Assembly: GCA_038222225.1 (NCBI GenBank)
Contig: JBBRHV010000003.1
Coordinates: forward strand, 10,331-74,330
Reading direction: 5' to 3'
Origin: Candidatus Omnitrophota bacterium
Lineage (GTDB): Bacteria; Omnitrophota; Gorgyraeia; Zapsychrales; JANLHA01
DNA length: 64,000 bases
The stretch's first letter is position 1, and the number at the start of each line of letters is the position of its first letter. Below the pieces are notes generated by a model. The model was not told the origin of the DNA, did no database searches, and was given only the letters and a program-made list of their open reading frames with translations. Positions 12,013-49,907 of the stretch are shown here, piece after piece. Both the position numbers and the translations under genes were made by a program.

Positions 12013-12084
12013 TTGTGCCCCATCGCGTTATTGTGTTATAAAACTCTATTGTATTATTAAACTCACTACTCCCTATTCATGTCC

Positions 12085-25632: not shown

Positions 25633-25757
25633 ATGGCAATTCCTTTGTAATAATGCCCGGCCATGACAGAACCGGATTAATAGGACTTTCTATTCAGTCG
25701 AATCTCTCGGTTAGCGACTTACAATATAAAGGTGTCGCCTTTATTGACCTTTATTGA

Positions 25758-25866
25758 TTAAGGCAACCTCTAATAATTCCATTTACAGTCAAAATGAATG
25801 GCTCTTTATCGACGATAGCGGAATCAGTAAATGACTCAAAAATAGCATTTTTAGAGGTTGCCTTAA
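25758..25866. repeat. 109-bp element bounded by a 16-bp inverted repeat (TTAAGGCAACCTCTAA ... TTAGAGGTTGCCTTAA), orientation A. Inverton or MITE-like.
   Basis: Same element at 26245..26353 with identical direct flanks (CACCTTTATTGA ... GTATTGTGTC) but the inner 77 bp reverse-complemented. Confidence 0.75.
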
Positions 25867-25883
25867 GTATTGTGTCCCCAGAA

Positions 25884-26153
25884 TTACAGGGATCCTCTTC
25901 TCTTTGGTTTCTTCTCTACACTTTTCTTAGGGGCCATTTTGCCCCGATTACGAATAATCAAACCGTCTAAAAATCGTCTTAACAGCTGATCGCCGCAAGG
26001 CCTATAATTTTCCTGATCGTCTTTACGAAAAATAGCGGAGAGCTCCGAAGGAGAAACTTCTAATTCAGCGAGTTTAAGGATTTCAATAATATCCGTGTCT
26101 CTTAAATGCAAAGCGATACGAAGCTTTTTCATAATGTCGTTATTGTTAATCAT
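25884..26153 (-). CDS. DUF1456 (YehS-like) protein.
   Basis: NDIMKKLRIALHLRDTDIIEILKLAELEVS...QLLRRFLDGLIIRNRG pattern. Confidence 0.7.
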   Translation of the reverse strand: MINNNDIMKKLRIALHLRDTDIIEILKLAELEVSPSELSAIFRKDDQENYRPCGDQLLRRFLDGLIIRNRGKMAPKKSVEKKPKRRGSL

Positions 26154-26244
26154 CCTTGATCCCTCCTGTGATCCTAACAATTAAGCCATTTCTATCCAAG
26201 CCAATAATAAAGGTGTCAATCACCTTTCTTGTCACCTTTATTGA

Positions 26245-26353
26245 TTAAGGCAACCTCTAAAAATGCTATTTTTGGGTCATTTACTGATTCCGTTATCGTC
26301 GATAAAGAGTCATTCATTTTGACTGTAAATGGAATTATTAGAGGTAGCCTTAA
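26245..26353. repeat. Second copy of the IR-bounded 109-bp element, orientation B (interior inverted relative to copy 1).
   Basis: See 25758..25866. Confidence 0.75.
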
Positions 26354-26381
26354 GTATTGTGTCTCCAGAGTTTTTTTATTT

Positions 26382-27356: not shown

Positions 27357-27794
27357 TTAATCTCTATTCTTTTTAAACCACTCCTGATAATATTCCTCCT
27401 GCGCATCCGCTTTGCCGCTTGCGACATAATCCTGATACAGCATTTCTCCTAGATCTTCGCGAATAACATCATCAGGAACTCGACCGTCATCAAAATCCCG
27501 GTACATAATAAATAACGTCCTTAAAAGAACACCAATAGGCTTCATAAACTGTTCGGGAACTTCGATCCGAATCGAATCAACTTCCTCAGCATAAAACTTC
27601 GGATCCTTGCGAATAATTACACCTTTTCCCGCGAACTTCTCAATCACGCTTTCCACGGCCTTGACCTTCCCTTCAGAAGATAAGGCATCCCACATACCGG
27701 CACTGCTTTGAACTGAATTCTGAATAGAAGATGTCGCCGCTAATGTGGGACAGCACCATGTACACAAAAACATTATAATTAATATTTTCTGCAT
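27357..27794 (-). CDS. Secreted hypothetical protein (signal peptide; start taken at MQKIL).
   Basis: Hydrophobic MQKILIIMFLCTWCCPTLAATSS leader. The upstream in-frame extension is the translation of a CT tract and is unlikely to be coding. Confidence 0.5.
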   Translation of the reverse strand: MQKILIIMFLCTWCCPTLAATSSIQNSVQSSAGMWDALSSEGKVKAVESVIEKFAGKGVIIRKDPKFYAEEVDSIRIEVPEQFMKPIGVLLRTLFIMYRDFDDGRVPDDVIREDLGEMLYQDYVASGKADAQEEYYQEWFKKNRD

Positions 27795-28011
27795 TTTTAT
27801 TTTTAAAAACCGCTTCCTGATATCCGCAACACGCCCTGTCCACTCACGGTGGACTGTCCCCTTCTCCGTTCTCTTCTCCCTTCTCCTCTCCTTCTCCTTC
27901 TCTTGAGTTGACCCTTTATAAAGGAAACAGCGCATGTAGTTAAACCCGCAGTTAATGAAAGATGTGTTATTTTACTGAAAAAGTAATGATTTTACAAGAA
28001 ATAACCTGTCG

Positions 28012-29046
28012 CTATTTATATATACCCGCCAAACCTTTATCCAACAATTCCTGATTCACATAAACCCCCTCCTCCGCAATGCGGGCGAGGTCATCCGTTC
28101 CCTCCAGCACAAACAGATCAGTCAGATAACGGCCGTACTTTTCCGGGTCCTTATGGGTCTTAACCACCACGCGCTCAACGCCTTTGAGGCGGCCGGTCAA
28201 ATACTCTTTGGCCTTAACCCCGGCTAAAGTGGAAAGCTCCGGGGCATCGATCGCCCGCAGGCGCAGGCGCTGGGTTGTTAACATACCGTAGCCCATATCA
28301 ATGCGCGCCACCAAAGTATCGCCGTCCACCACTCGATCGATCCAGGCGCCGTAAGTATACAGCACCTCACTGGGACCTTTATAGGTTTCCAGCCGGTAAC
28401 CTGCCCCCTCTTTGATCGAGCACACAAGTTTCGAATTGATAAACTTGATATATCCCGCCTCGGCACTGTCAATGGCCACATGAAAACCCAGATCAAGCCT
28501 TGGTGAAAACGGCACGCCGTTTAAATCCGTGCCTTTGCGGATCGCATATAGATAGGGAATGCCGCGCGCACAGGTCAGCTGTCCGCCTTTGAGCTCAACG
28601 CGATGAAGCGCTTCGACGTTTTTGTCGCGAACCAATTCGGTCACCTGCAGGCTCGAAACTCCCTCTTTAATCATCCGGCGCTCAAGCTTGAGCCGTTCTT
28701 TACTATCGGCCACACTGATCAGATGGCGGTAATGCGTCCAGGTCAAGGGCGTGTTGCCCGGACACTGCGGATACATGCGGTAGAACTGAACCATCTTCTG
28801 AAGGACGCGCTCATTCAATTTAAGCTCCTCCCCCAATTTTTGGTACAGCGAAACCCTGTAAGCGGAGCGGTAATCCTTGTCGAGAAAAGATTCGGCGATC
28901 GAGCAGCCGATCTTCCAGTAGGTTTGAACACGGGCGAGGTTTAAAAGATGCTGAGCTTCTTTGAGCCCGGTATCCATGTCCCGGCGGATGGATGTCAGAA
29001 GTTTGGTGAAACGTTTTTCAACCACAACGTTGGCGGGAACGGTCAT
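28012..29046 (-). CDS. DUF1016_N (YhcG N-terminal) domain fused to a staphylococcal-nuclease-like (SNase/thermonuclease) domain; putative nuclease.
   Basis: LLNLARVQTYWKIGCSIAE (DUF1016_N-like) and VVDGDTLVARIDMG...LRLRAIDAPE (SNase DGDT...R..IDAPE). Confidence 0.6.
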   Translation of the reverse strand: MTVPANVVVEKRFTKLLTSIRRDMDTGLKEAQHLLNLARVQTYWKIGCSIAESFLDKDYRSAYRVSLYQKLGEELKLNERVLQKMVQFYRMYPQCPGNTPLTWTHYRHLISVADSKERLKLERRMIKEGVSSLQVTELVRDKNVEALHRVELKGGQLTCARGIPYLYAIRKGTDLNGVPFSPRLDLGFHVAIDSAEAGYIKFINSKLVCSIKEGAGYRLETYKGPSEVLYTYGAWIDRVVDGDTLVARIDMGYGMLTTQRLRLRAIDAPELSTLAGVKAKEYLTGRLKGVERVVVKTHKDPEKYGRYLTDLFVLEGTDDLARIAEEGVYVNQELLDKGLAGIYK

Positions 29047-29057
29047 GGAAATATTAT

Positions 29058-29140
29058 AGAGCGTAGAGGGTAGAGCGTAAAGCGTAGAGGGAAAAAAAGA
29101 CACTAAGACACTAAGACACTCAGGCACTAAGACACTGAAA
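29058..29140. repeat. Two short tandem repeat blocks: (AGCGTAGAGGG)-like x3 and (GACACTAA) x about 5.
   Basis: Read directly from the sequence upstream of the nuclease gene start. Confidence 0.7.
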
Positions 29141-29182
29141 AACGGAAAAACAAAAAACCGCCCTTTGGGGTGGCTTTTTATT

Positions 29183-29317: not shown

Positions 29318-29596
29318 CTAAATATTCTTCAGAAACCTTTTAATATCGTCGTGATTTCCCGCAAATATAAATTCCACTAAATCCCCTTGCCACCTAAACA
29401 AGATCCTAGCTTTTATGCCCTTGCGCACTTCCCAAAAGTCACCTCTTAAACGCTTTAAGCCAATTCCTTTATGAATACTTTGATCTTGGGACAGCATATC
29501 AATTAGCTGAATTGCAACTTCTTTTATTGCTGCCTTTTCCTTCTCGGAAAAGGATTTCATTGATCGCTTAAATGCCGGCTTAAATTCAAATTTCAT
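29318..29596 (-). CDS. RelE/ParE-family type II toxin.
   Basis: 92 aa; KGIGLKRLRGDFWEVRKGIKARILFRWQGDLVEFIFAGNHDD pattern; 4-bp overlap with the upstream antitoxin. Confidence 0.7.
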   Translation of the reverse strand: MKFEFKPAFKRSMKSFSEKEKAAIKEVAIQLIDMLSQDQSIHKGIGLKRLRGDFWEVRKGIKARILFRWQGDLVEFIFAGNHDDIKRFLKNI

Positions 29597-29856
29597 AAGT
29601 CTTTAAGATGTTCTTTGGCTACTTCTGCACTGGAAATGCTCTTGCCTTTTTCAGCGGCTAGCTTCTCGATCTTAGCCCATTCTTGTTCCGTGTATGGAGA
29701 TTCAGCCGTGACTTTGCAAGGAACCAAAATCACACCATCTTTTGTAATACCAAAACCCACCGCCGAACCTTCTTTTAAATTCAAAAGCTTTCGAATACGA
29801 TTGGGGATCGTGATCTGTCCTTTGGTGGTCATTTTTGCTACTTCTGTGATTGTCAT
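29593..29856 (-). CDS. AbrB/MazE/SpoVT-type antitoxin.
   Basis: MTTKGQITIPNRIRKLLNLKEGSAV swapped-hairpin motif; RBS AAAGGAG. Confidence 0.7.
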   Translation of the reverse strand: MTITEVAKMTTKGQITIPNRIRKLLNLKEGSAVGFGITKDGVILVPCKVTAESPYTEQEWAKIEKLAAEKGKSISSAEVAKEHLKDL

Positions 29857-32490: not shown

Positions 32491-32895
32491 TCAAGATAGC
32501 TTGTTCTTCACAAATTCAAAAAACCGCTCACAATCTTTAAACATCTTCTCTGCCTCGTTTTTGCAAACAAGGCGCTCCTCATACTCAGCCATATTTTTCA
32601 TCCGCAAAATCCTCACGATACGGTTGGCGTTTGTCGTGAACTCTTCGGTGTTTTTGATCATTTTAAACAGGACGACCGCCTGATTATGGTCTTCGCCGGC
32701 GCTTCTTTTCCCCAAAAAATAAACGCACATGGCGTCACAGGCGGATATCGTGCAGTGTATCGCATTAATAGCAACAGCATTCCACTGTTGTCCTTGCAAG
32801 GCTTTCTGCGATGCATTAAAACACTCTTGTGCTTTCTGCATAAAATTCGTATACGCTGCGCGCTGAACATCCCGTGTTTTCGGCTTTGCTATCAT
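32491..32895 (-). CDS. HEPN-domain protein (toxin partner of MNT).
   Basis: R-x4-6-H motif (KRSAGEDH); genetic pairing with the MNT gene. Confidence 0.7.
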   Translation of the reverse strand: MIAKPKTRDVQRAAYTNFMQKAQECFNASQKALQGQQWNAVAINAIHCTISACDAMCVYFLGKRSAGEDHNQAVVLFKMIKNTEEFTTNANRIVRILRMKNMAEYEERLVCKNEAEKMFKDCERFFEFVKNKLS

Positions 32896-32907
32896 AACAT
32901 CATCCTC

Positions 32908-33504
32908 CTAGGGGAATAATTGTATTCCTTTTTCGATTTCCTCCAAAAGCTTCAGATCCTTCTTCTGCTGAAACTGTTTTTCCGTCAGAACATACGCAGC
33001 CAATCTGTTGCCAAATTTTTCTAGGCATGTAATAGACAGTCCCTCAAGCGATTCCTCCAGAGACTTTAAACTTTCCTTATTTTGGGTCAAAACAAAAAGA
33101 TCAATATCGCTGTCTGTTTTTTCATCATGACTGGAAACAGATCCGAACAAAACGACTTTAATCAGGCTTTTCTTGGGTAGTCTGCTTAAAATGGTCGTTT
33201 TTAAGGCCACAATCGGCTGTGGCTGCGTGTCAACGATCCCTTTGACAGTATTCAACACATCATAAGCGTAACTCTGAGGATTGACTTTCCAGACATGGGC
33301 CCGCCCTACTCTTTCATAGGAAACAAAATGCCACTGCTCCAGATAGCGCATAACCCGGTTAACCGTCATGTGCGAAATTCCCACCAGAGACGAAATCTCT
33401 CTCTCACTCATGGCGGACTCATGGTTAATCAAAAACCGGACAACCTTGAGTTTCGCCTCAGTATCGATCAATTGAAAAAACGAATCATGAAACTTCATAC
33501 GCAT
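32908..33504 (-). CDS. Minimal nucleotidyltransferase (MNT) with N-terminal winged HTH (antitoxin partner of HEPN).
   Basis: LFGSVSSHDEKTDSDIDLFVL (GS...DxD) motif; wHTH at the N-terminus. Confidence 0.75.
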   Translation of the reverse strand: MRMKFHDSFFQLIDTEAKLKVVRFLINHESAMSEREISSLVGISHMTVNRVMRYLEQWHFVSYERVGRAHVWKVNPQSYAYDVLNTVKGIVDTQPQPIVALKTTILSRLPKKSLIKVVLFGSVSSHDEKTDSDIDLFVLTQNKESLKSLEESLEGLSITCLEKFGNRLAAYVLTEKQFQQKKDLKLLEEIEKGIQLFP

Positions 33505-33615: not shown

Positions 33616-33963
33616 TTCATTTACTAGAGAGTGGTTGCCCAATTATGGCTAAATCCTAGTAAATGGCTTTTTGGCCATTTTCCCAAAATGCCGATTGCGA
33701 CTATTTTGATTTATTGTCATTTACTAGGGGCCATTTACTAAGTGCCACTTCTGATAGAAATGGCTAGTATCAGACCCAATTTGGCTGTCGCGAGTACTAT
33801 CAATTTTTCCAAATGTAAGCATCCAGCGCCGAAACTACAAAACACCATCCCACTTGCGCCCTAACCCTTTGACACGTCAAGACATGAACGATCCCTGACT
33901 GCGTTTGGCAATCAGGGATCTTTGTGATTCTGAGAGTCGTTTCCGACACTGTTATACTGGTAG
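33616..33963 (+). repeat. Repeat R2 (CATTTACTAG sites x4 in direct/inverted orientation, terminator hairpin, ends ...TTATACTGGTAG); lacks the central sRNA-like segment.
   Basis: Alignable to R3 36711..37142 and R1 558..873. Confidence 0.75.
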
Positions 33964-33999: not shown

Positions 34000-35263
34000 T
34001 GATCTTCCCCACTTTAGTGGACAGTTTGTTTAGTTAGGACGGCTCGATTTTCAAACTCAAAAGGACTTAAATAATTGAGCGTTGAATGACTCCGTCTACG
34101 ATTATAATACATCTCTACATATTCAAAGATTTTTCTTCTTGCTTCTTCCCTAGTTCGAAATCGGTACTTGTGAACAAGCTCGACTTTTAACGTGTGGAAG
34201 AAGCTCTCAGCGACGGCATTATCCCAGCAGTCACCTTTTCGGCTCATACTGCCGATAAGCTTATGTTCAGCCAATATCGCCTTGAAATCATTCCCTGCGT
34301 ACTGACTGCCGCGATCTGAGTGACAGATCAATCCTTTATCCGGATTCCGCCTTAGGATCGCCTGTTGCATAGCCCTGGTGGTTAGTGTCGCGGCAATGGT
34401 TTTATCCATGGCCAAACCAACAATCCCCCGCGAAAAAAGATCCAGCACCATCGCCACATATAACCACCCTTGAGAAGTCCAAATATACGTTATATCGAAT
34501 ACCCAGACGGCATTGGGCTTCTCGACCACAAAGTTCCGATTCAAAACATTCGGCCATACCGGATAATCATGCTTCGAGTTCGTCGTTAACCGAAACTTAC
34601 GCTTCTGGACAGCGACGATTCTGGCTTCTCGCATGACCTTCGCCACACGGTTCTCCGAACAACGGATATGTTTGACGTTGTTCAACTGGTCCCAGATTCG
34701 TGGACTGCCGTAATTCTCTTTGTTCTCCACAAACACACATTTTATCTCAATGAGCAATGCTTCATTCTTGATGCGGCCCTGGCTCTTGGGCCGATTTTTG
34801 TATGCGTAATACCCGCTCCTCGACACTTCCAAGGCCCGGCACATCTTCCCGAGCGGAAAGACCAAACGGTTATCGTCTATGAATCCGAACCGTTCTCGGT
34901 CGATTTTGAAAATATGCCGACTGCTTTTTTTAGGATGTCACGCTCCATTTCAACATCACGTAACTGACGCCGTAACGCCGCCAACTCTGTCAAATGACCC
35001 TTGCCGGGAAAAGCCTTCTCTCCCTCATCGCCAAACTGCTTCTTCCAGAGATACAGCCGCCCCGGGTCGATTCCAAGGCTCCTGGCCACCTCTGCGGCCT
35101 TGTGCCCGCCCTCTGTGACCATCTTGACCGCTGACATCTTGAACTCCCGGTCAAACCGCTTCTTCTTCCCGTTTTCTCCTGCCATTGGACACCTCCCGTT
35201 TTTGAGCCGGCTATCATATTAAAACCAACTCTTCGTTGTGTCCACTTTTTCGGGGGAAGATCA
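34000..35263 (-). mobile_element. IS3-family insertion sequence (orfA 34877..35185, orfB 34014..about 34930, A7 -1 frameshift site near 34920; terminal IRs TGATCTTCCCC...).
   Basis: OrfA HTH protein; OrfB rve/DDE integrase core; slippery CTAAAAAAAGC; about 25-bp imperfect terminal inverted repeats at 34000 and 35263. Confidence 0.85.
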
Positions 35264-36710: not shown

Positions 36711-37142
36711 TTCATTTACTAGAGAATTTTCGCCATATTCAGGCACAATCCTAGTAAATGAAATTCTGGCTATTCCACCCCAATAGGCATTTTCAAACAT
36801 TTTGATAAATAAGCATTTACTAGGAGCCATTTACTAAAGGCCGATTTTGATAGAAATGGCTAGTATCAGACCCAATTTGGCTGCCGCGAGTACTATCAAT
36901 TTTTCCAAACGTGATCATCCTGCGCCGAAACTACAAAACATCATCCCCATTACGCCCTAACCATTTGCAACGTCAACACAGGCATTACCCCCTTCGGGGG
37001 TTGATGCTGCGCAATCATCTAAACTCTGCAAAAAAACACCAGAGTTTAGATACGCAAACCGCATCAAAAATCCCTGACCGCGTTTGGCAATCAGGGATCT
37101 TTTTGATTCTAAGAGTCGTTTCCGACACTATTATACTGGTAG
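36711..37142 (+). repeat. Repeat R3 (full-length: CATTTACTAG site cluster + sRNA-like structured segment about 36930-37095 + terminator), directly abutting a tRNA-Glu 3'-end copy at 37137.
   Basis: See R1/R2; ends with ...ttatactggtagccccaa. Confidence 0.75.
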
Positions 37143-37322: not shown

Positions 37323-37399
37323 TGGTAGCCCCAACCGGATTTGAACCGGTGTTTGATGGCTGAGAACCATCCGTCCTGACCAGGCTAGACGATGGGGCC
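37323..37399 (-). tRNA. tRNA-Glu (anticodon CUC), CCA encoded.
   Basis: Hand-folded cloverleaf: acceptor GGCCCCA/TGGGGCT, anticodon arm GATGG-TTCTCAG-CCATC, T-arm ACCGG-TTCAAAT-CCGGT, D-region TCGTCTAG...AGGAC as in bacterial tRNA-Glu. Confidence 0.85.
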
Positions 37400-37599: not shown

Positions 37600-37703
37600 G
37601 CTGAGCAATGAGGCTTACCTCAAAATCTTTTAGCCAAAGCCTCATTCCCGGCCAACTTGATTGGCCGGCACCATCCGTCCTGACCAGGCTAGACGATGGG
37701 GCC
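37600..37703 (-). repeat. Partial copy of the tRNA-Glu 5' half (positions 1 to about 33, 37668..37703), then a 64-nt hairpin-rich insertion, then the anticodon/3'-stem sequence CTCAGCCATCC. Not a complete tRNA.
   Basis: ccatccgtcctgaccaggctagacgatggggcc identical to 37367-37399; downstream sequence lacks a proper T-arm and acceptor 3' strand. Confidence 0.6.
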
Positions 37704-37986
37704 AAAATTTTTAAACCCATAAAATTGAAATACTTGGAAATACATAGAAAGACGGGGAAATAAAAAAGCTTCCCCCCCCACCGTCCATGGCGCATCCTTC
37801 AATTTCAAGCGCATATCACTCGTATTTCAATCCACTTCTATCATTTTCCACTAGGGATAAATCTTACCACATTTCCCTTATTGGTCAATAAAAATATCCC
37901 GCTGCATTTTTAAGGAAAAGCACCTCCCATAAGACTATTTTTATGATATATTCTTTATAATTAGGAAAATTATCGAGGACCTCAGC

Positions 37987-44640: not shown

Positions 44641-46017
44641 TTAACCTTCCAAAAGAAACTTGCTCTGATTAGCCGGGATCTTGACCGGATACTGGCCGGA
44701 AAAACAGGCATGACAAAACTGCTGCCCGTCGGTCATTACCGAAAGCATCCCCTGTCGGCTTAAATATCCCAACGAATCCACTTTGATAAATTTCGCGATC
44801 TCCTCCACCGTTTTGCTGGAGGCGATCAGTTCTTTTTTGCTGGGAAAATCAATGCCGTAAAAACACGGCCACTCGATCGGCGGACAGCTGATCCGCATAT
44901 GAATTTCTTTGACCCCGACCGTGCGCAGCTCTTCAATACGGCTACGGCTCGTCGTCCCCCGGACAATGGAATCCTCGACCACCACCACGCGCTTGCCTTT
45001 CAGGACGTCACGGATCGGGTTCAGCTTGACCCGCACCTGAGATTCCCGGATGAATTGGCTCGGCTGAATAAACGTCCTGCCAACATAATGATTGCGAATC
45101 ATGCCGACTTCAAACGGCAGCCCCAGTTCCTGAGCATATCCCAGGGCCGCATAGTTGCCTGAGTCGGGGATCGCGATCACAAAATCCGCGTCTTTCACCG
45201 GATGCTCCTGGGCCAGCCGCGCGCCTAAGCGCTTGCGGGTCAAATACACATTGTCGTCGAAAATATGGCTGTCCGGACGGGCAAAATAAATGTTTTCAAA
45301 AATACAATGGGCGTGCGTTTCCGTTCCGTTCTTGCCGTACTGGTATGTTTCCAGCTTTTCCTTATTGATGATCACCATCTCGCCGGGCTGGATCTCACGG
45401 ATAAATTCCGCCTTGATCAGGTCCAGCGCGCAGCTCTCGCTGGCCAGCACATATCCGTTCACGGATTTGCCCAGGCACAGCGGCCGAAACCCCTGTGGAT
45501 CACGCGCCCCGACGATGGTATCTCCCACCAGAAAAACCAGCGAAAACGCGCCCTCCAGCTGCCGCAGCACATTGGTGAACATTTCCGCCAGGTCGCTCGT
45601 TTTTTCCTTGGCCAATAAATGAACAATGAGCTCCGAGTCCATGGTCGTCTGAAAAAGCGAGCCTTCCGCTTCAAGCCGGCTGAACAGCTCTGCCGTATTG
45701 GTCAGGTTCCCGTTATGGGCGATCGCGATCGGACGCCCCCGGTGCCGCACCAAAAACGGCTGGGTGTTTTTGATATTACTGGAACCGGTCGTCGAATAAC
45801 GGCAATGGCCGATGGCGGCATAGCCTTTGAGCTTCGCCAGGTCCTGCTCGGTCAAGGCGTCGGCAACCAGGCCGGGACCCTTGATCAGATGCACGTCTTC
45901 CCCGTCAAAGGAGGCAACCCCGGCCGCCTCTTCGCCCCGGTGCTGAAGCGCGTAAAGGCCCAGATAGATCGCCTTGCTCGCCTCAGAATGATTTGAAACT
46001 CCGATAATTCCGCACAT
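44641..46017 (-). CDS. purF: Amidophosphoribosyltransferase.
   Basis: MCGIIGV N-terminal nucleophile Cys; PRTase motif VVVVEDSIVRGTT. Confidence 0.95.
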   Translation of the reverse strand: MCGIIGVSNHSEASKAIYLGLYALQHRGEEAAGVASFDGEDVHLIKGPGLVADALTEQDLAKLKGYAAIGHCRYSTTGSSNIKNTQPFLVRHRGRPIAIAHNGNLTNTAELFSRLEAEGSLFQTTMDSELIVHLLAKEKTSDLAEMFTNVLRQLEGAFSLVFLVGDTIVGARDPQGFRPLCLGKSVNGYVLASESCALDLIKAEFIREIQPGEMVIINKEKLETYQYGKNGTETHAHCIFENIYFARPDSHIFDDNVYLTRKRLGARLAQEHPVKDADFVIAIPDSGNYAALGYAQELGLPFEVGMIRNHYVGRTFIQPSQFIRESQVRVKLNPIRDVLKGKRVVVVEDSIVRGTTSRSRIEELRTVGVKEIHMRISCPPIEWPCFYGIDFPSKKELIASSKTVEEIAKFIKVDSLGYLSRQGMLSVMTDGQQFCHACFSGQYPVKIPANQSKFLLEG

Positions 46018-46162
46018 ATTTATCCCTCAGTAATGACCTAATGAAAAATCTAAACATGTTGAAACAACTCGAAATATATGGAAACATAAAAACCGCGCGC
46101 ATCAAAACCAACCTGAAATTTTTTTATCGCTCCTACACGCTTCGTATTGGGTATTTCGATTG

Positions 46163-46218
46163 CGTCTTGTGTCCTGCGTCCTGCGTCCTGCGTCCTGTGT
46201 CCTGTGTCCTGTGTCCTG
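46163..46218. repeat. Tandem heptanucleotide repeat GTCCTG(C/T) x about 8 in the purF upstream intergenic region.
   Basis: gtcctgcgtcctgcgtcctgcgtcctgtgtcctgtgtcctgtgtcctgc read directly. Confidence 0.8.
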
Positions 46219-46429
46219 CCCTGCGCAAATCGAAGATTAGCACAGGATTGGCCTCCCACGCAAAATAAAATTTTGAATGGGACCTTCTCTTGGCAAATCT
46301 ACGATTTGCTCAAGGCTATACAAACCTACGGTTTGTGTAGGATGTCTTTTCTATTTCTATTTTGTTTCAATGTGCTTCTTTCTTCTTTCTTCTTTCCGCG
46401 TCCCTCTCCGCCACTGCGTTTCAACGCCT

Positions 46430-49672: not shown

Positions 49673-49907
49673 ATTTTATATCTTAAGAAATAGAAATATA
49701 TAGAAACAAATAAAACACAATTAAAATCCTTAGGAACACATAGAAATATTTAGAAATATTTTGAAACAAAAACCCAAATATCATTGTGCTGATTAATTAA
49801 TTTCTCTTTTCCGCCTCTTCCTTTTATTTCTACTTATTTCCATTTATTTCAACATGTTTCAACCTGCTTCAAGTGTATTTCCACTATATTTCAATGATGT
49901 TTCACTT

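Follow-up and report, generated by a model that had tools for sequence, protein, structure and literature searches.

Proteins of the YhcG/DUF1016 family carry an N-terminal DUF1016_N domain followed by a PD-(D/E)XK nuclease, and they have been reported with type I restriction-modification (RM) loci and with mobile elements (PMC9881135; PMC3424549). In earlier surveys the N-terminal domain of YhcG could not be matched with confidence to any structure (PMC1189080). The window analyzed here, a stretch of 64,000 nucleotides of the Candidatus Omnitrophota contig JBBRHV010000003.1 (positions 10,331 to 74,330, forward strand), holds on its minus strand a gene for a predicted nuclease in which the same N-terminal domain is joined to another catalytic module, the SNase (thermonuclease) domain. 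The product is read as a three-module nuclease of genetic conflict, a reading to which a probability of about 0.55 is given as a whole, with high confidence in the molecular anatomy and moderate confidence in the biological role. The gene and its modules are the following:

28012–29046, minus strand: coding region for the DUF1016_N-SNase nuclease (344 aa), running from the ATG at 29046 to the stop codon at 28012–28014
28606–29046, minus strand: N-terminal all-helical DUF1016_N domain, residues 1–147 (Pfam PF17761), with a putative ParB/Noc/SopB-like helix-turn-helix (HTH) fold
28360–28599, minus strand: middle beta-rich 'pseudo-SN' region, residues 150–229, recognized by hhalign; LYxY and DxGF kept, catalytic residues absent
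28015–28359, minus strand: SNase (thermonuclease) domain, residues 230–344 (Pfam PF00565, Foldseek), active-site residues intact

The domain architecture could be read directly from the profile searches. Pfam places DUF1016_N (PF17761) at residues 24–136 (46.9 bits, cut-off 32.8, E 3.8e-12) and SNase (PF00565) at residues 260–343 (28.5 bits, cut-off 21, E 2.2e-6), and no match to YhcG_C/PD-(D/E)XK (PF06250) was seen in the nuclease even at E ≤ 1. In agreement with this, 22 PADLOC models of PDC-S02 (the YhcG type) match residues ~10–150 (best E 5e-19), the full-length models among them (332–357 positions) aligning to the nuclease through their first ~150 positions only. NCBIfam holds no model for the whole protein and gave just weak partial matches to thermonucleases. 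The AlphaFold model built from an alignment of 55 sequences (mean pLDDT 90.7) shows helices at residues 5–147, a beta-rich part at ~150–229 and an OB-type barrel with helices at 231–336. An initial annotation, made from the letters of the window, had named both domains and had proposed that the catalytic module was swapped; both assignments pass their Pfam cut-offs, structure prediction followed by Foldseek confirmed the SNase fold, and an SNase fold does stand in place of PD-(D/E)XK.

Since a direct sequence search against solved structures returned a single marginal SNase match (E 0.16), a comparison of folds was needed for the C-terminal domain. Foldseek retrieved SNase crystal structures from the PDB with E ~8e-7, a TM (target) of 0.70 and an rmsd of 1.8–2.4 over ~117 columns. 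In the pairwise HMM alignment D241, D243 and T244 map to D19, D21 and T22 of SNase, and R262, D267, E270 and R306 to R35, D40, E43 and R87, positions that in SNase act as Ca2+ ligands, phosphate-binding arginines and general base. Residues D241, D243, T244, R262, E270 and R306 are invariant in the 55 aligned sequences, and D267 is an aspartate in nearly all of them (Asn in two of those shown), a conservation across the family alignment which indicates selection on the active site. The domain breaks off near SNase residue 110 (Pfam profile positions 1–77 of 107), where the protein ends; helix α3 is missing and no further helix is seen in the AlphaFold model. Mean pairwise identity is 52% in the SNase module, 32% in the N-terminal one and 26% in the middle one, and this far higher conservation of the SNase module fits a constant cutter attached to a variable targeting part. 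The N-terminus, as read from the sequence, is hydrophilic and helical and contains no signal-peptide-like stretch, so the protein is predicted to be cytoplasmic. The stand-alone gene is real and its nuclease probably active.

For the N-terminal part a second structure model, limited to residues 1–229, was used in a fold search of the PDB. The top 29 Foldseek matches were all DNA-binding domains of ParB, Noc or SopB (E 0.012–0.8), with probabilities mostly above 0.9 at ranks 1–21, mostly 0.87–1.0 over ranks 1–25 and of ~0.2–0.4 for several lower-ranked SopB/ParB matches, and the TM to the Noc DNA-binding domain was 0.65. A profile of the N-terminal two-thirds of the family matched Spo0J and Noc in the PDB over residues 95–141 (E 0.012–0.03), and the Pfam HTH_ParB profile was found at residues 100–142 below its cut-off (E 0.088). 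Each of these scores is marginal and together they are consistent, so that DUF1016_N is best read as a putative ParB-type HTH DNA-binding domain.

The middle region has no Pfam match. When it was compared by hhalign with the SNase sub-alignments, a probability of 94.8% and an E of 5e-8 were obtained, with 'RGxLYxY...iDxGF' of the middle region paired with 'LYTYxAxVxRVIDGDTLxxxIDxGF' of the SNase domain, whereas the control comparisons of the N-terminal part with the middle region or with the SNase domain gave E 0.4–0.5. On this alignment evidence the region is a degenerate duplicate of SNase strands 1–3, without the DGDT and R...D.PE residues of the active domain. Residues R161, D185, G187 and F188 are invariant or nearly so in the 55-sequence alignment. 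The pLDDT of this region is 87–96 in the full-length model and ~50 in the model of residues 1–229, and confidence gained only in the whole protein suggests that the region packs onto the catalytic domain. The low-confidence fragment model also barred a separate fold search, so the nature of this domain rests on hhalign.

The limits of the gene depend on the choice of start codon. The one long minus-strand open reading frame (ORF) in the interval first reported, 28012–29127, begins with GTG and codes for 371 aa; the public annotation (P0001) is the same 371-aa model from the GTG at 29127. The N-termini of 55 homologs align to the methionine encoded at 29046, and the 27 additional codons of the GTG model (29047–29127) are translated tandem repeats which would contain the predicted promoter described below. 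Because the homolog N-termini meet at this methionine and the extension only reads through repeats, the gene was taken as 28012–29046; its true start is probably the ATG at 29046, the public model beginning too early. With a GC content of 0.529 and a GC at third codon positions (GC3) of 0.626, against 0.37–0.45 in the adjacent genes, the gene is a compositional outlier in the low-GC part of the window and matches its high-GC half, which suggests an origin different from that of its immediate neighbours. No second copy was found in the 64-kb window.

The family searches show that the module swap is no peculiar local shuffle. A word-indexed search returned 416 clusters of relatives at 90% identity, almost all of 320–390 aa with both domains; the clusters with a named source are mostly from Candidatus Omnitrophota/Omnitrophica, and their existing labels are 'thermonuclease family protein' and 'DUF1016 N-terminal domain-containing protein'. 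An exhaustive profile search gave 1,140 clusters at 50% identity with E ≤ 1e-30, again nearly all of 320–390 aa, the best 150 of them being nearly all full-length. The nuclease is thus one member of a large and uniform family. Relatives are encoded at no fewer than 386 loci in species-representative genomes, most of them of Omnitrophota; the other hosts are Leptospiraceae, Latescibacterota, Opitutales/Verrucomicrobiota, Elusimicrobiota and a few more, in a patchy distribution over phyla. Of the 63 genomes represented in the top 80 loci, 13 contain 2–4 paralogs, usually 28–49% identical. Relatives of ~330 aa (28–30% identity, ~80% coverage) are also carried by 24 plasmids of pathogenic Leptospira, near RHS/polymorphic-toxin genes. 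In these proteins (for example L164 6827–7825 and L165 6827–7819) the Ca2+ ligand equivalent to Asp40 is replaced ('RLHNVWAAE') and the Pfam SNase score is sub-threshold, and they may be a catalytically altered subgroup. Literature searches on DUF1016, YhcG, PDC-S02, thermonuclease with ParB, EcnA, and Omnitrophota with nuclease retrieved no description of the DUF1016_N-SNase architecture.

A phage-borne origin of the full-length protein was considered and rejected: IMG/VR viral contigs, GenBank phages and BFVD gave SNase-only matches, which align to residues ~227–343 of the nuclease at 35–44% identity. Separate SNase genes were seen at a few family loci. At the locus of the closest relative (L001, 490–1329; 68% identity, same SRA run) a gene for a 279-aa SNase with a signal-peptide-like N-terminus and a Cys-rich C-terminal extension lies 15 nt upstream of the family gene, and additional SNase-like ORFs occur nearby at loci L040 and L015. 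In two metagenome-assembled genomes of Leptospiraceae (L027 3830–4930; L044 1896–2936) the family gene is split into an N-terminal and a C-terminal ORF, which could be due to a frameshift, a pseudogene or an assembly error.

The genomic neighbourhood was compared over ±5 ORFs at 81 loci. A conserved partner gene (immunity gene, antitoxin or methylase) was sought by all-against-all clustering and discarded, no cluster being present at more than 7 loci; the commonest, at 7 loci, consists of generic response regulators. The 132 immediate neighbours are heterogeneous by Pfam and PADLOC, with a few matches to AbiE, PIN, DUF4143 ATPase (PDC-S01), methyltransferase and reverse transcriptase. A gene of an RM, toxin-antitoxin (TA) or abortive infection (Abi) family lies within ±5 ORFs at about 20 of the 81 loci, and type I RM genes adjoin the family gene at 4–5 of them, among these L024, L027, L032 and L063. 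On sequence grounds the picture is that of an accessory, horizontally mobile single gene. The term 'defence island' used in the initial annotation is too strong for loci that share no conserved neighbour and carry RM, TA or Abi genes nearby in about a quarter of cases.

A role in genetic conflict is favoured because the gene has no partner, its paralogs are divergent, its distribution is patchy, relatives are carried on plasmids and RM genes are occasionally adjacent. Part of this evidence would also suit a housekeeping enzyme of DNA metabolism in Omnitrophota and their relatives, in which the ParB-like domain would serve repair, processing of recombination intermediates, nucleoid maintenance or nucleotide salvage: ordinary core genes flank many family loci, a conserved immunity or partner gene is absent, length is uniform and the active site strongly conserved throughout the family, and the N-terminal fold resembles the chromosome organisers ParB and Noc. 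Such an enzyme agrees less well, however, with several divergent paralogs per genome, with a scattering over unrelated phyla that extends to Leptospira plasmids, with the lack of conserved synteny, with a GC outlier in a low-GC stretch bearing TA and insertion sequence genes, and with the ties of DUF1016_N elsewhere to RM loci and mobile elements, and a housekeeping role is held to be unlikely. A gene that stands alone, in several copies and in varying surroundings, and whose composition is unlike that of the adjacent genes might instead be a selfish homing-type or mobile nuclease spreading by the cutting of empty sites. Yet no repeats, direct or inverted, and no target duplications that would mark a cassette were found beside the gene, the paralogs of one genome are mostly old (28–49% identity) rather than recent copies, and the gene does not lie inside introns, inteins or conserved genes, all of which makes homing very improbable.

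The region upstream of the nuclease gene contains two tandem arrays and a predicted promoter:

29053–29081, minus strand: TTTACG-17 nt-TATAAT, a predicted promoter of the sigma-70 type with 10 of 12 positions matched, the best-matching site of the region
29057–29091, minus strand: heptamer array C[C/G]CT[C/T]TA x5, overlapping the promoter from the -35 box through the spacer to the first 2 nt of the -10 box
29098–29137, minus strand: octamer array (T/C/G)AGTG(T/C)CT x5, upstream of the -35 box, with a T-run between octamers and heptamers
29158–29173, no strand assigned: GC-rich hairpin with A/T-run flanks, from the terminator scan

Read on the coding strand, the order is a terminator-like hairpin, five octamers, the T-run, five heptamers, TAATATTTCC and the ATG. 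The heptamer copies (minus strand, 29091–29057) are CCCTCTA CGCTTTA CGCTCTA CCCTCTA CGCTCTA, and Tandem Repeats Finder (TRF) reports this array at 29057–29089 (period 7, 4.7 copies, score 52); the octamer copies (minus strand, 29137–29098) are CAGTGTCT TAGTGCCT GAGTGTCT TAGTGTCT TAGTGTCT, reported at 29097–29136 (period 8, 5.0 copies, score 66). In a shuffle test of the two patterns none of 100 shuffles reached the observed count and neither pattern attained 4 matches. The two repeat blocks of the initial annotation are therefore both real, and with the gene on the minus strand they do stand 5' of it, as stated there; the octamer block (x5) was described correctly, whereas the other is a heptamer repeated five times and not (AGCGTAGAGGG)x3, the 11-mer AGCGTAGAGGG occurring only twice.

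The spacing read from the sequence puts the end of the predicted -10 box 6 nt before the A of the ATG at 29046, so that transcription would be expected to start at or next to this A; no Shine-Dalgarno sequence precedes the ATG. The simplest reading is a dedicated promoter inside the heptamer array and a candidate leaderless mRNA. The hairpin at 29158–29173 is a probable intrinsic terminator, which would close the upstream TA operon and insulate the nuclease promoter. An Rfam scan of the leader and its vicinity found two tRNAs only and no known RNA family.

Arrays of this kind are found before other genes of the window:

46161–46219: heptamer GGACRCA x8.4, ~144 nt upstream of the minus-strand gene 44641–46017 (MCGIIG...)
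27860–27902: (AGAAGG)x7, on the other strand (CCTTCT)x7, upstream of position 27794, where the ORF adjoining the nuclease gene probably starts
12029–12064 and 49818–49860: 18- and 20-mers x2, in 5' intergenic regions of minus-strand genes

These arrays lie in 5' intergenic regions of unrelated minus-strand genes. The candidate view of the repeats as a feature of the family was dropped, as a comparable upstream array (TRF score ≥50) is present at just 2 of 77 other family loci. Since similar arrays precede unrelated genes in the window, short tandem repeats close to promoters seem to be a general habit of the genome and not a device of the nuclease gene.

The position of the five heptamers, which cover the -35 box and the spacer and run into the -10 box, raises the question of a contingency (phase-variation) switch, in which slippage would alter the -35/-10 geometry and turn the potentially toxic nuclease ON or OFF in subpopulations. 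Such a switch is mechanically possible, as one heptamer gained or lost between the hexamers would shift the 17-nt spacing by 7 nt, and the two independent arrays directly upstream are both above chance. Nevertheless, the copies are few and imperfect (84–87% matches), which lowers slippage rates; the only other assembly of the locus (a Logan contig, L003) is identical and comes from the same SRA run and sample, and two metagenome scans found no other strain with the locus. Arrays are nearly absent upstream of other family genes, and the comparable ones before unrelated genes point to the genome-wide habit rather than to a nuclease-specific switch; phase variation is regarded as doubtful. ParB-family and ribbon-helix-helix regulators (for example omega of pSM19035) bind short direct-repeat arrays in promoters, and direct repeats that overlap a core promoter, before a gene whose product has a putative DNA-binding domain, might thus be operator sites for a repressor, either the ParB-like domain of the nuclease itself or a neighbouring antitoxin-type regulator, that would keep expression low. 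This proposal fits poorly with repeats that are not conserved upstream of homologs, with periods of 7 and 8 nt that do not hold sites on one face of the helix, and with the different arrays of other genes in the window; it is considered decidedly improbable.

In the proposed mechanism for the conflict nuclease, transcription would proceed from its own promoter embedded in the heptamer array, probably as a leaderless mRNA, to give a cytoplasmic, stand-alone and DNA-tethered SNase, the SNase-armed counterpart of YhcG (DUF1016_N plus PD-(D/E)XK). The DUF1016_N domain with its ParB/Noc-type HTH would bind DNA and probably set the target preference, the dead pseudo-SN half-barrel would pack on the active domain and buttress or extend the substrate groove, and the compact SNase domain, with a full Ca2+/phosphate-binding and general-base set, would hydrolyse the backbone in a Ca2+-dependent manner. 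The most likely role would be one of genetic conflict, in which the nuclease attacks foreign DNA in the manner of a restriction enzyme or acts in addiction or abortive defence, much as is suspected of YhcG, with self-damage limited, in place of an immunity partner, by target choice, low cytosolic Ca2+ and/or tight transcription.

Several points weigh against this reading. The ParB-like scores are modest (Foldseek E ~1e-2, HMM E 0.01–0.03, HTH_ParB E 0.088), the middle domain is modelled with low confidence when the SNase domain is left out, and catalysis is not guaranteed in an SNase domain without helix α3; the activity of every family member is a computational prediction, and both promoter and leaderless start are predicted from the consensus only. 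Ordinary genes (tRNA synthetase, FtsW, sugar and lipid enzymes) make up most of the 132 immediate flanking ORFs, and only a handful of these ORFs match PADLOC families. Finally, the single PDC-S02 (YhcG-type) representative for which an experimental test was found, in E. coli B, did not figure among the systems that protect against T4, T5 or T7 (10.1101/2024.09.26.614923).

In a more specific form of the proposal, this widespread family, with over 1,000 clusters and its centre in Omnitrophota, would be a single-gene immune or abortive system in which the ParB-type HTH reads foreign or marked DNA and an SNase silent at resting Ca2+ fires on infection, with the addition at this locus of switching by heptamer slippage. 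In this full form it must be regarded as speculative and rather unlikely.

Upstream of the nuclease gene on the minus strand lies a TA pair, given here as context and not as part of the nuclease unit:

29318–29856, minus strand: type II TA pair, MazE/AbrB-type antitoxin at 29593–29856 and RelE/YafQ-like toxin at 29318–29596

Pfam recognizes the antitoxin as MazE_antitoxin (E 1e-9) and the toxin as YafQ_toxin below cut-off (E 0.002). The nuclease gene follows this pair and precedes the gene of an unknown 144-aa protein, and a HEPN plus MNT pair (32491–33504) and an IS3 transposase gene lie 3.5–6 kb away. Flanking TA modules, as the initial annotation had it, are thus present; of the 'att-like remnants' that it placed beside the gene none was found, the nearest candidates being repeats of ~240 nt at a distance of 4.8 kb or more. 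A mobile cassette marked by flanking repeats was likewise considered and set aside, no direct or inverted repeats or target duplications having been found at the nuclease gene. A sharp shift in GC content occurs at a tRNA-Glu gene (37323–37399, minus strand), from 0.42 on the left (1–37300) to 0.505 on the right (37400–64000), with local values of 0.37–0.47 in the left 37 kb and 0.50–0.54 to the right of the tRNA. The left, low-GC part carries TA pairs, the IS3 transposase, a Fic protein, GGDEF signalling proteins, glycosyltransferases and a PLD-like protein, and it may be a large acquired region.

Several other repeats were seen in the window. A sequence of ~240–350 nt is present three times (~630–873, 33616–33963 and 36711–37142; 82–95% identity), one copy abutting the IS3 transposase gene (34014–34865) and another lying 180 nt from the tRNA-Glu gene. 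All three copies contain a terminator-like hairpin (GATCCCTGAC...GTCAGGGATC and a T-run) and a common 40-nt tail, and a UUCG-type hairpin (CCTCCTTCGGAGG) is found in two of them and absent from the middle copy. This repeat has no Rfam match and could be a small RNA gene, an element end or att-type repeats. The 5' half of the tRNA-Glu recurs at 37657–37706 (88% identity), 304 nt from the intact gene; this copy is not called by ARAGORN or Rfam and may be a tRNA remnant or pseudogene. Two direct repeats of ~140 nt (25747–25885 and 26234–26372; 87–92% identity), each with an internal inverted repeat, bracket a DUF1456 gene (25884–26180).

What is new in this analysis is the size of the family, its focus on Omnitrophota, the likely ParB-like identity of DUF1016_N and the internal half-duplication of SNase. 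Its significance is moderate, as the swapping of nuclease modules among conflict proteins is a familiar theme and the family is already in databases, RefSeq included, under generic names. If active as predicted, the family would be an abundant accessory nuclease of Omnitrophota, a phylum with almost no experimental genetics, and the relatives on plasmids of cultivable pathogenic Leptospira provide an experimental entry point. A cytoplasmic SNase without an immunity partner also poses the question of how a Ca2+-dependent, non-specific cutter is kept harmless in the cell.

Compared with ParB, Noc and SopB, the nuclease appears to have a similar helical HTH fold, with sequence similarity over residues 95–141; it lacks the ParB/Srx CTPase N-terminal domain (Pfam) and, at the 81 loci, a parA or partition context. 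With marginal scores, the likeness appears to be one of DNA-binding fold and not of family membership. With the SNase/thermonuclease family (PF00565), and especially with the short SNase-only nucleases of phages, it has in common the fold and the full set of catalytic residues. It differs in having no signal peptide, in its fusion to a putative DNA-binding domain and a degenerate half-copy, and in the loss of helix α3, and among phages and viral contigs no relative of full length was found. Tudor-SN and other multi-SN proteins contain tandem SNase-like OB domains, in which some copies, having lost their catalytic residues, act as nucleic-acid-binding scaffolds; the present nuclease is bacterial, has no Tudor domain, duplicates only a half-barrel (strands 1–3) and keeps its terminal copy catalytically intact in residue content.

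The closest resemblance is to YhcG/DUF1016 (PF17761 plus PF06250; PDC-S02), with which the nuclease shares a homologous N-terminal DUF1016_N domain and the habit of a single, stand-alone gene without a partner, present in several paralogs and sometimes located beside type I RM genes. YhcG has a PD-(D/E)XK nuclease (YhcG_C, motif E-D-E(I/L/V)K), in contrast to the SNase OB-fold predicted here (Ca2+-dependent, 3'-phosphate ends), the pseudo-SN half-domain is an addition of the present family, and the taxonomic centre is in Omnitrophota for this family and in Proteobacteria or Bacteroidota for YhcG. The ParB-like reading of DUF1016_N would offer a concrete handle on the long-uncharacterised YhcG/PDC-S02 proteins and, if the nuclease is active as predicted, this domain would be a portable targeting module able to drive two nucleases of unrelated chemistry, PD-(D/E)XK in the case of YhcG and SNase in the family described here.

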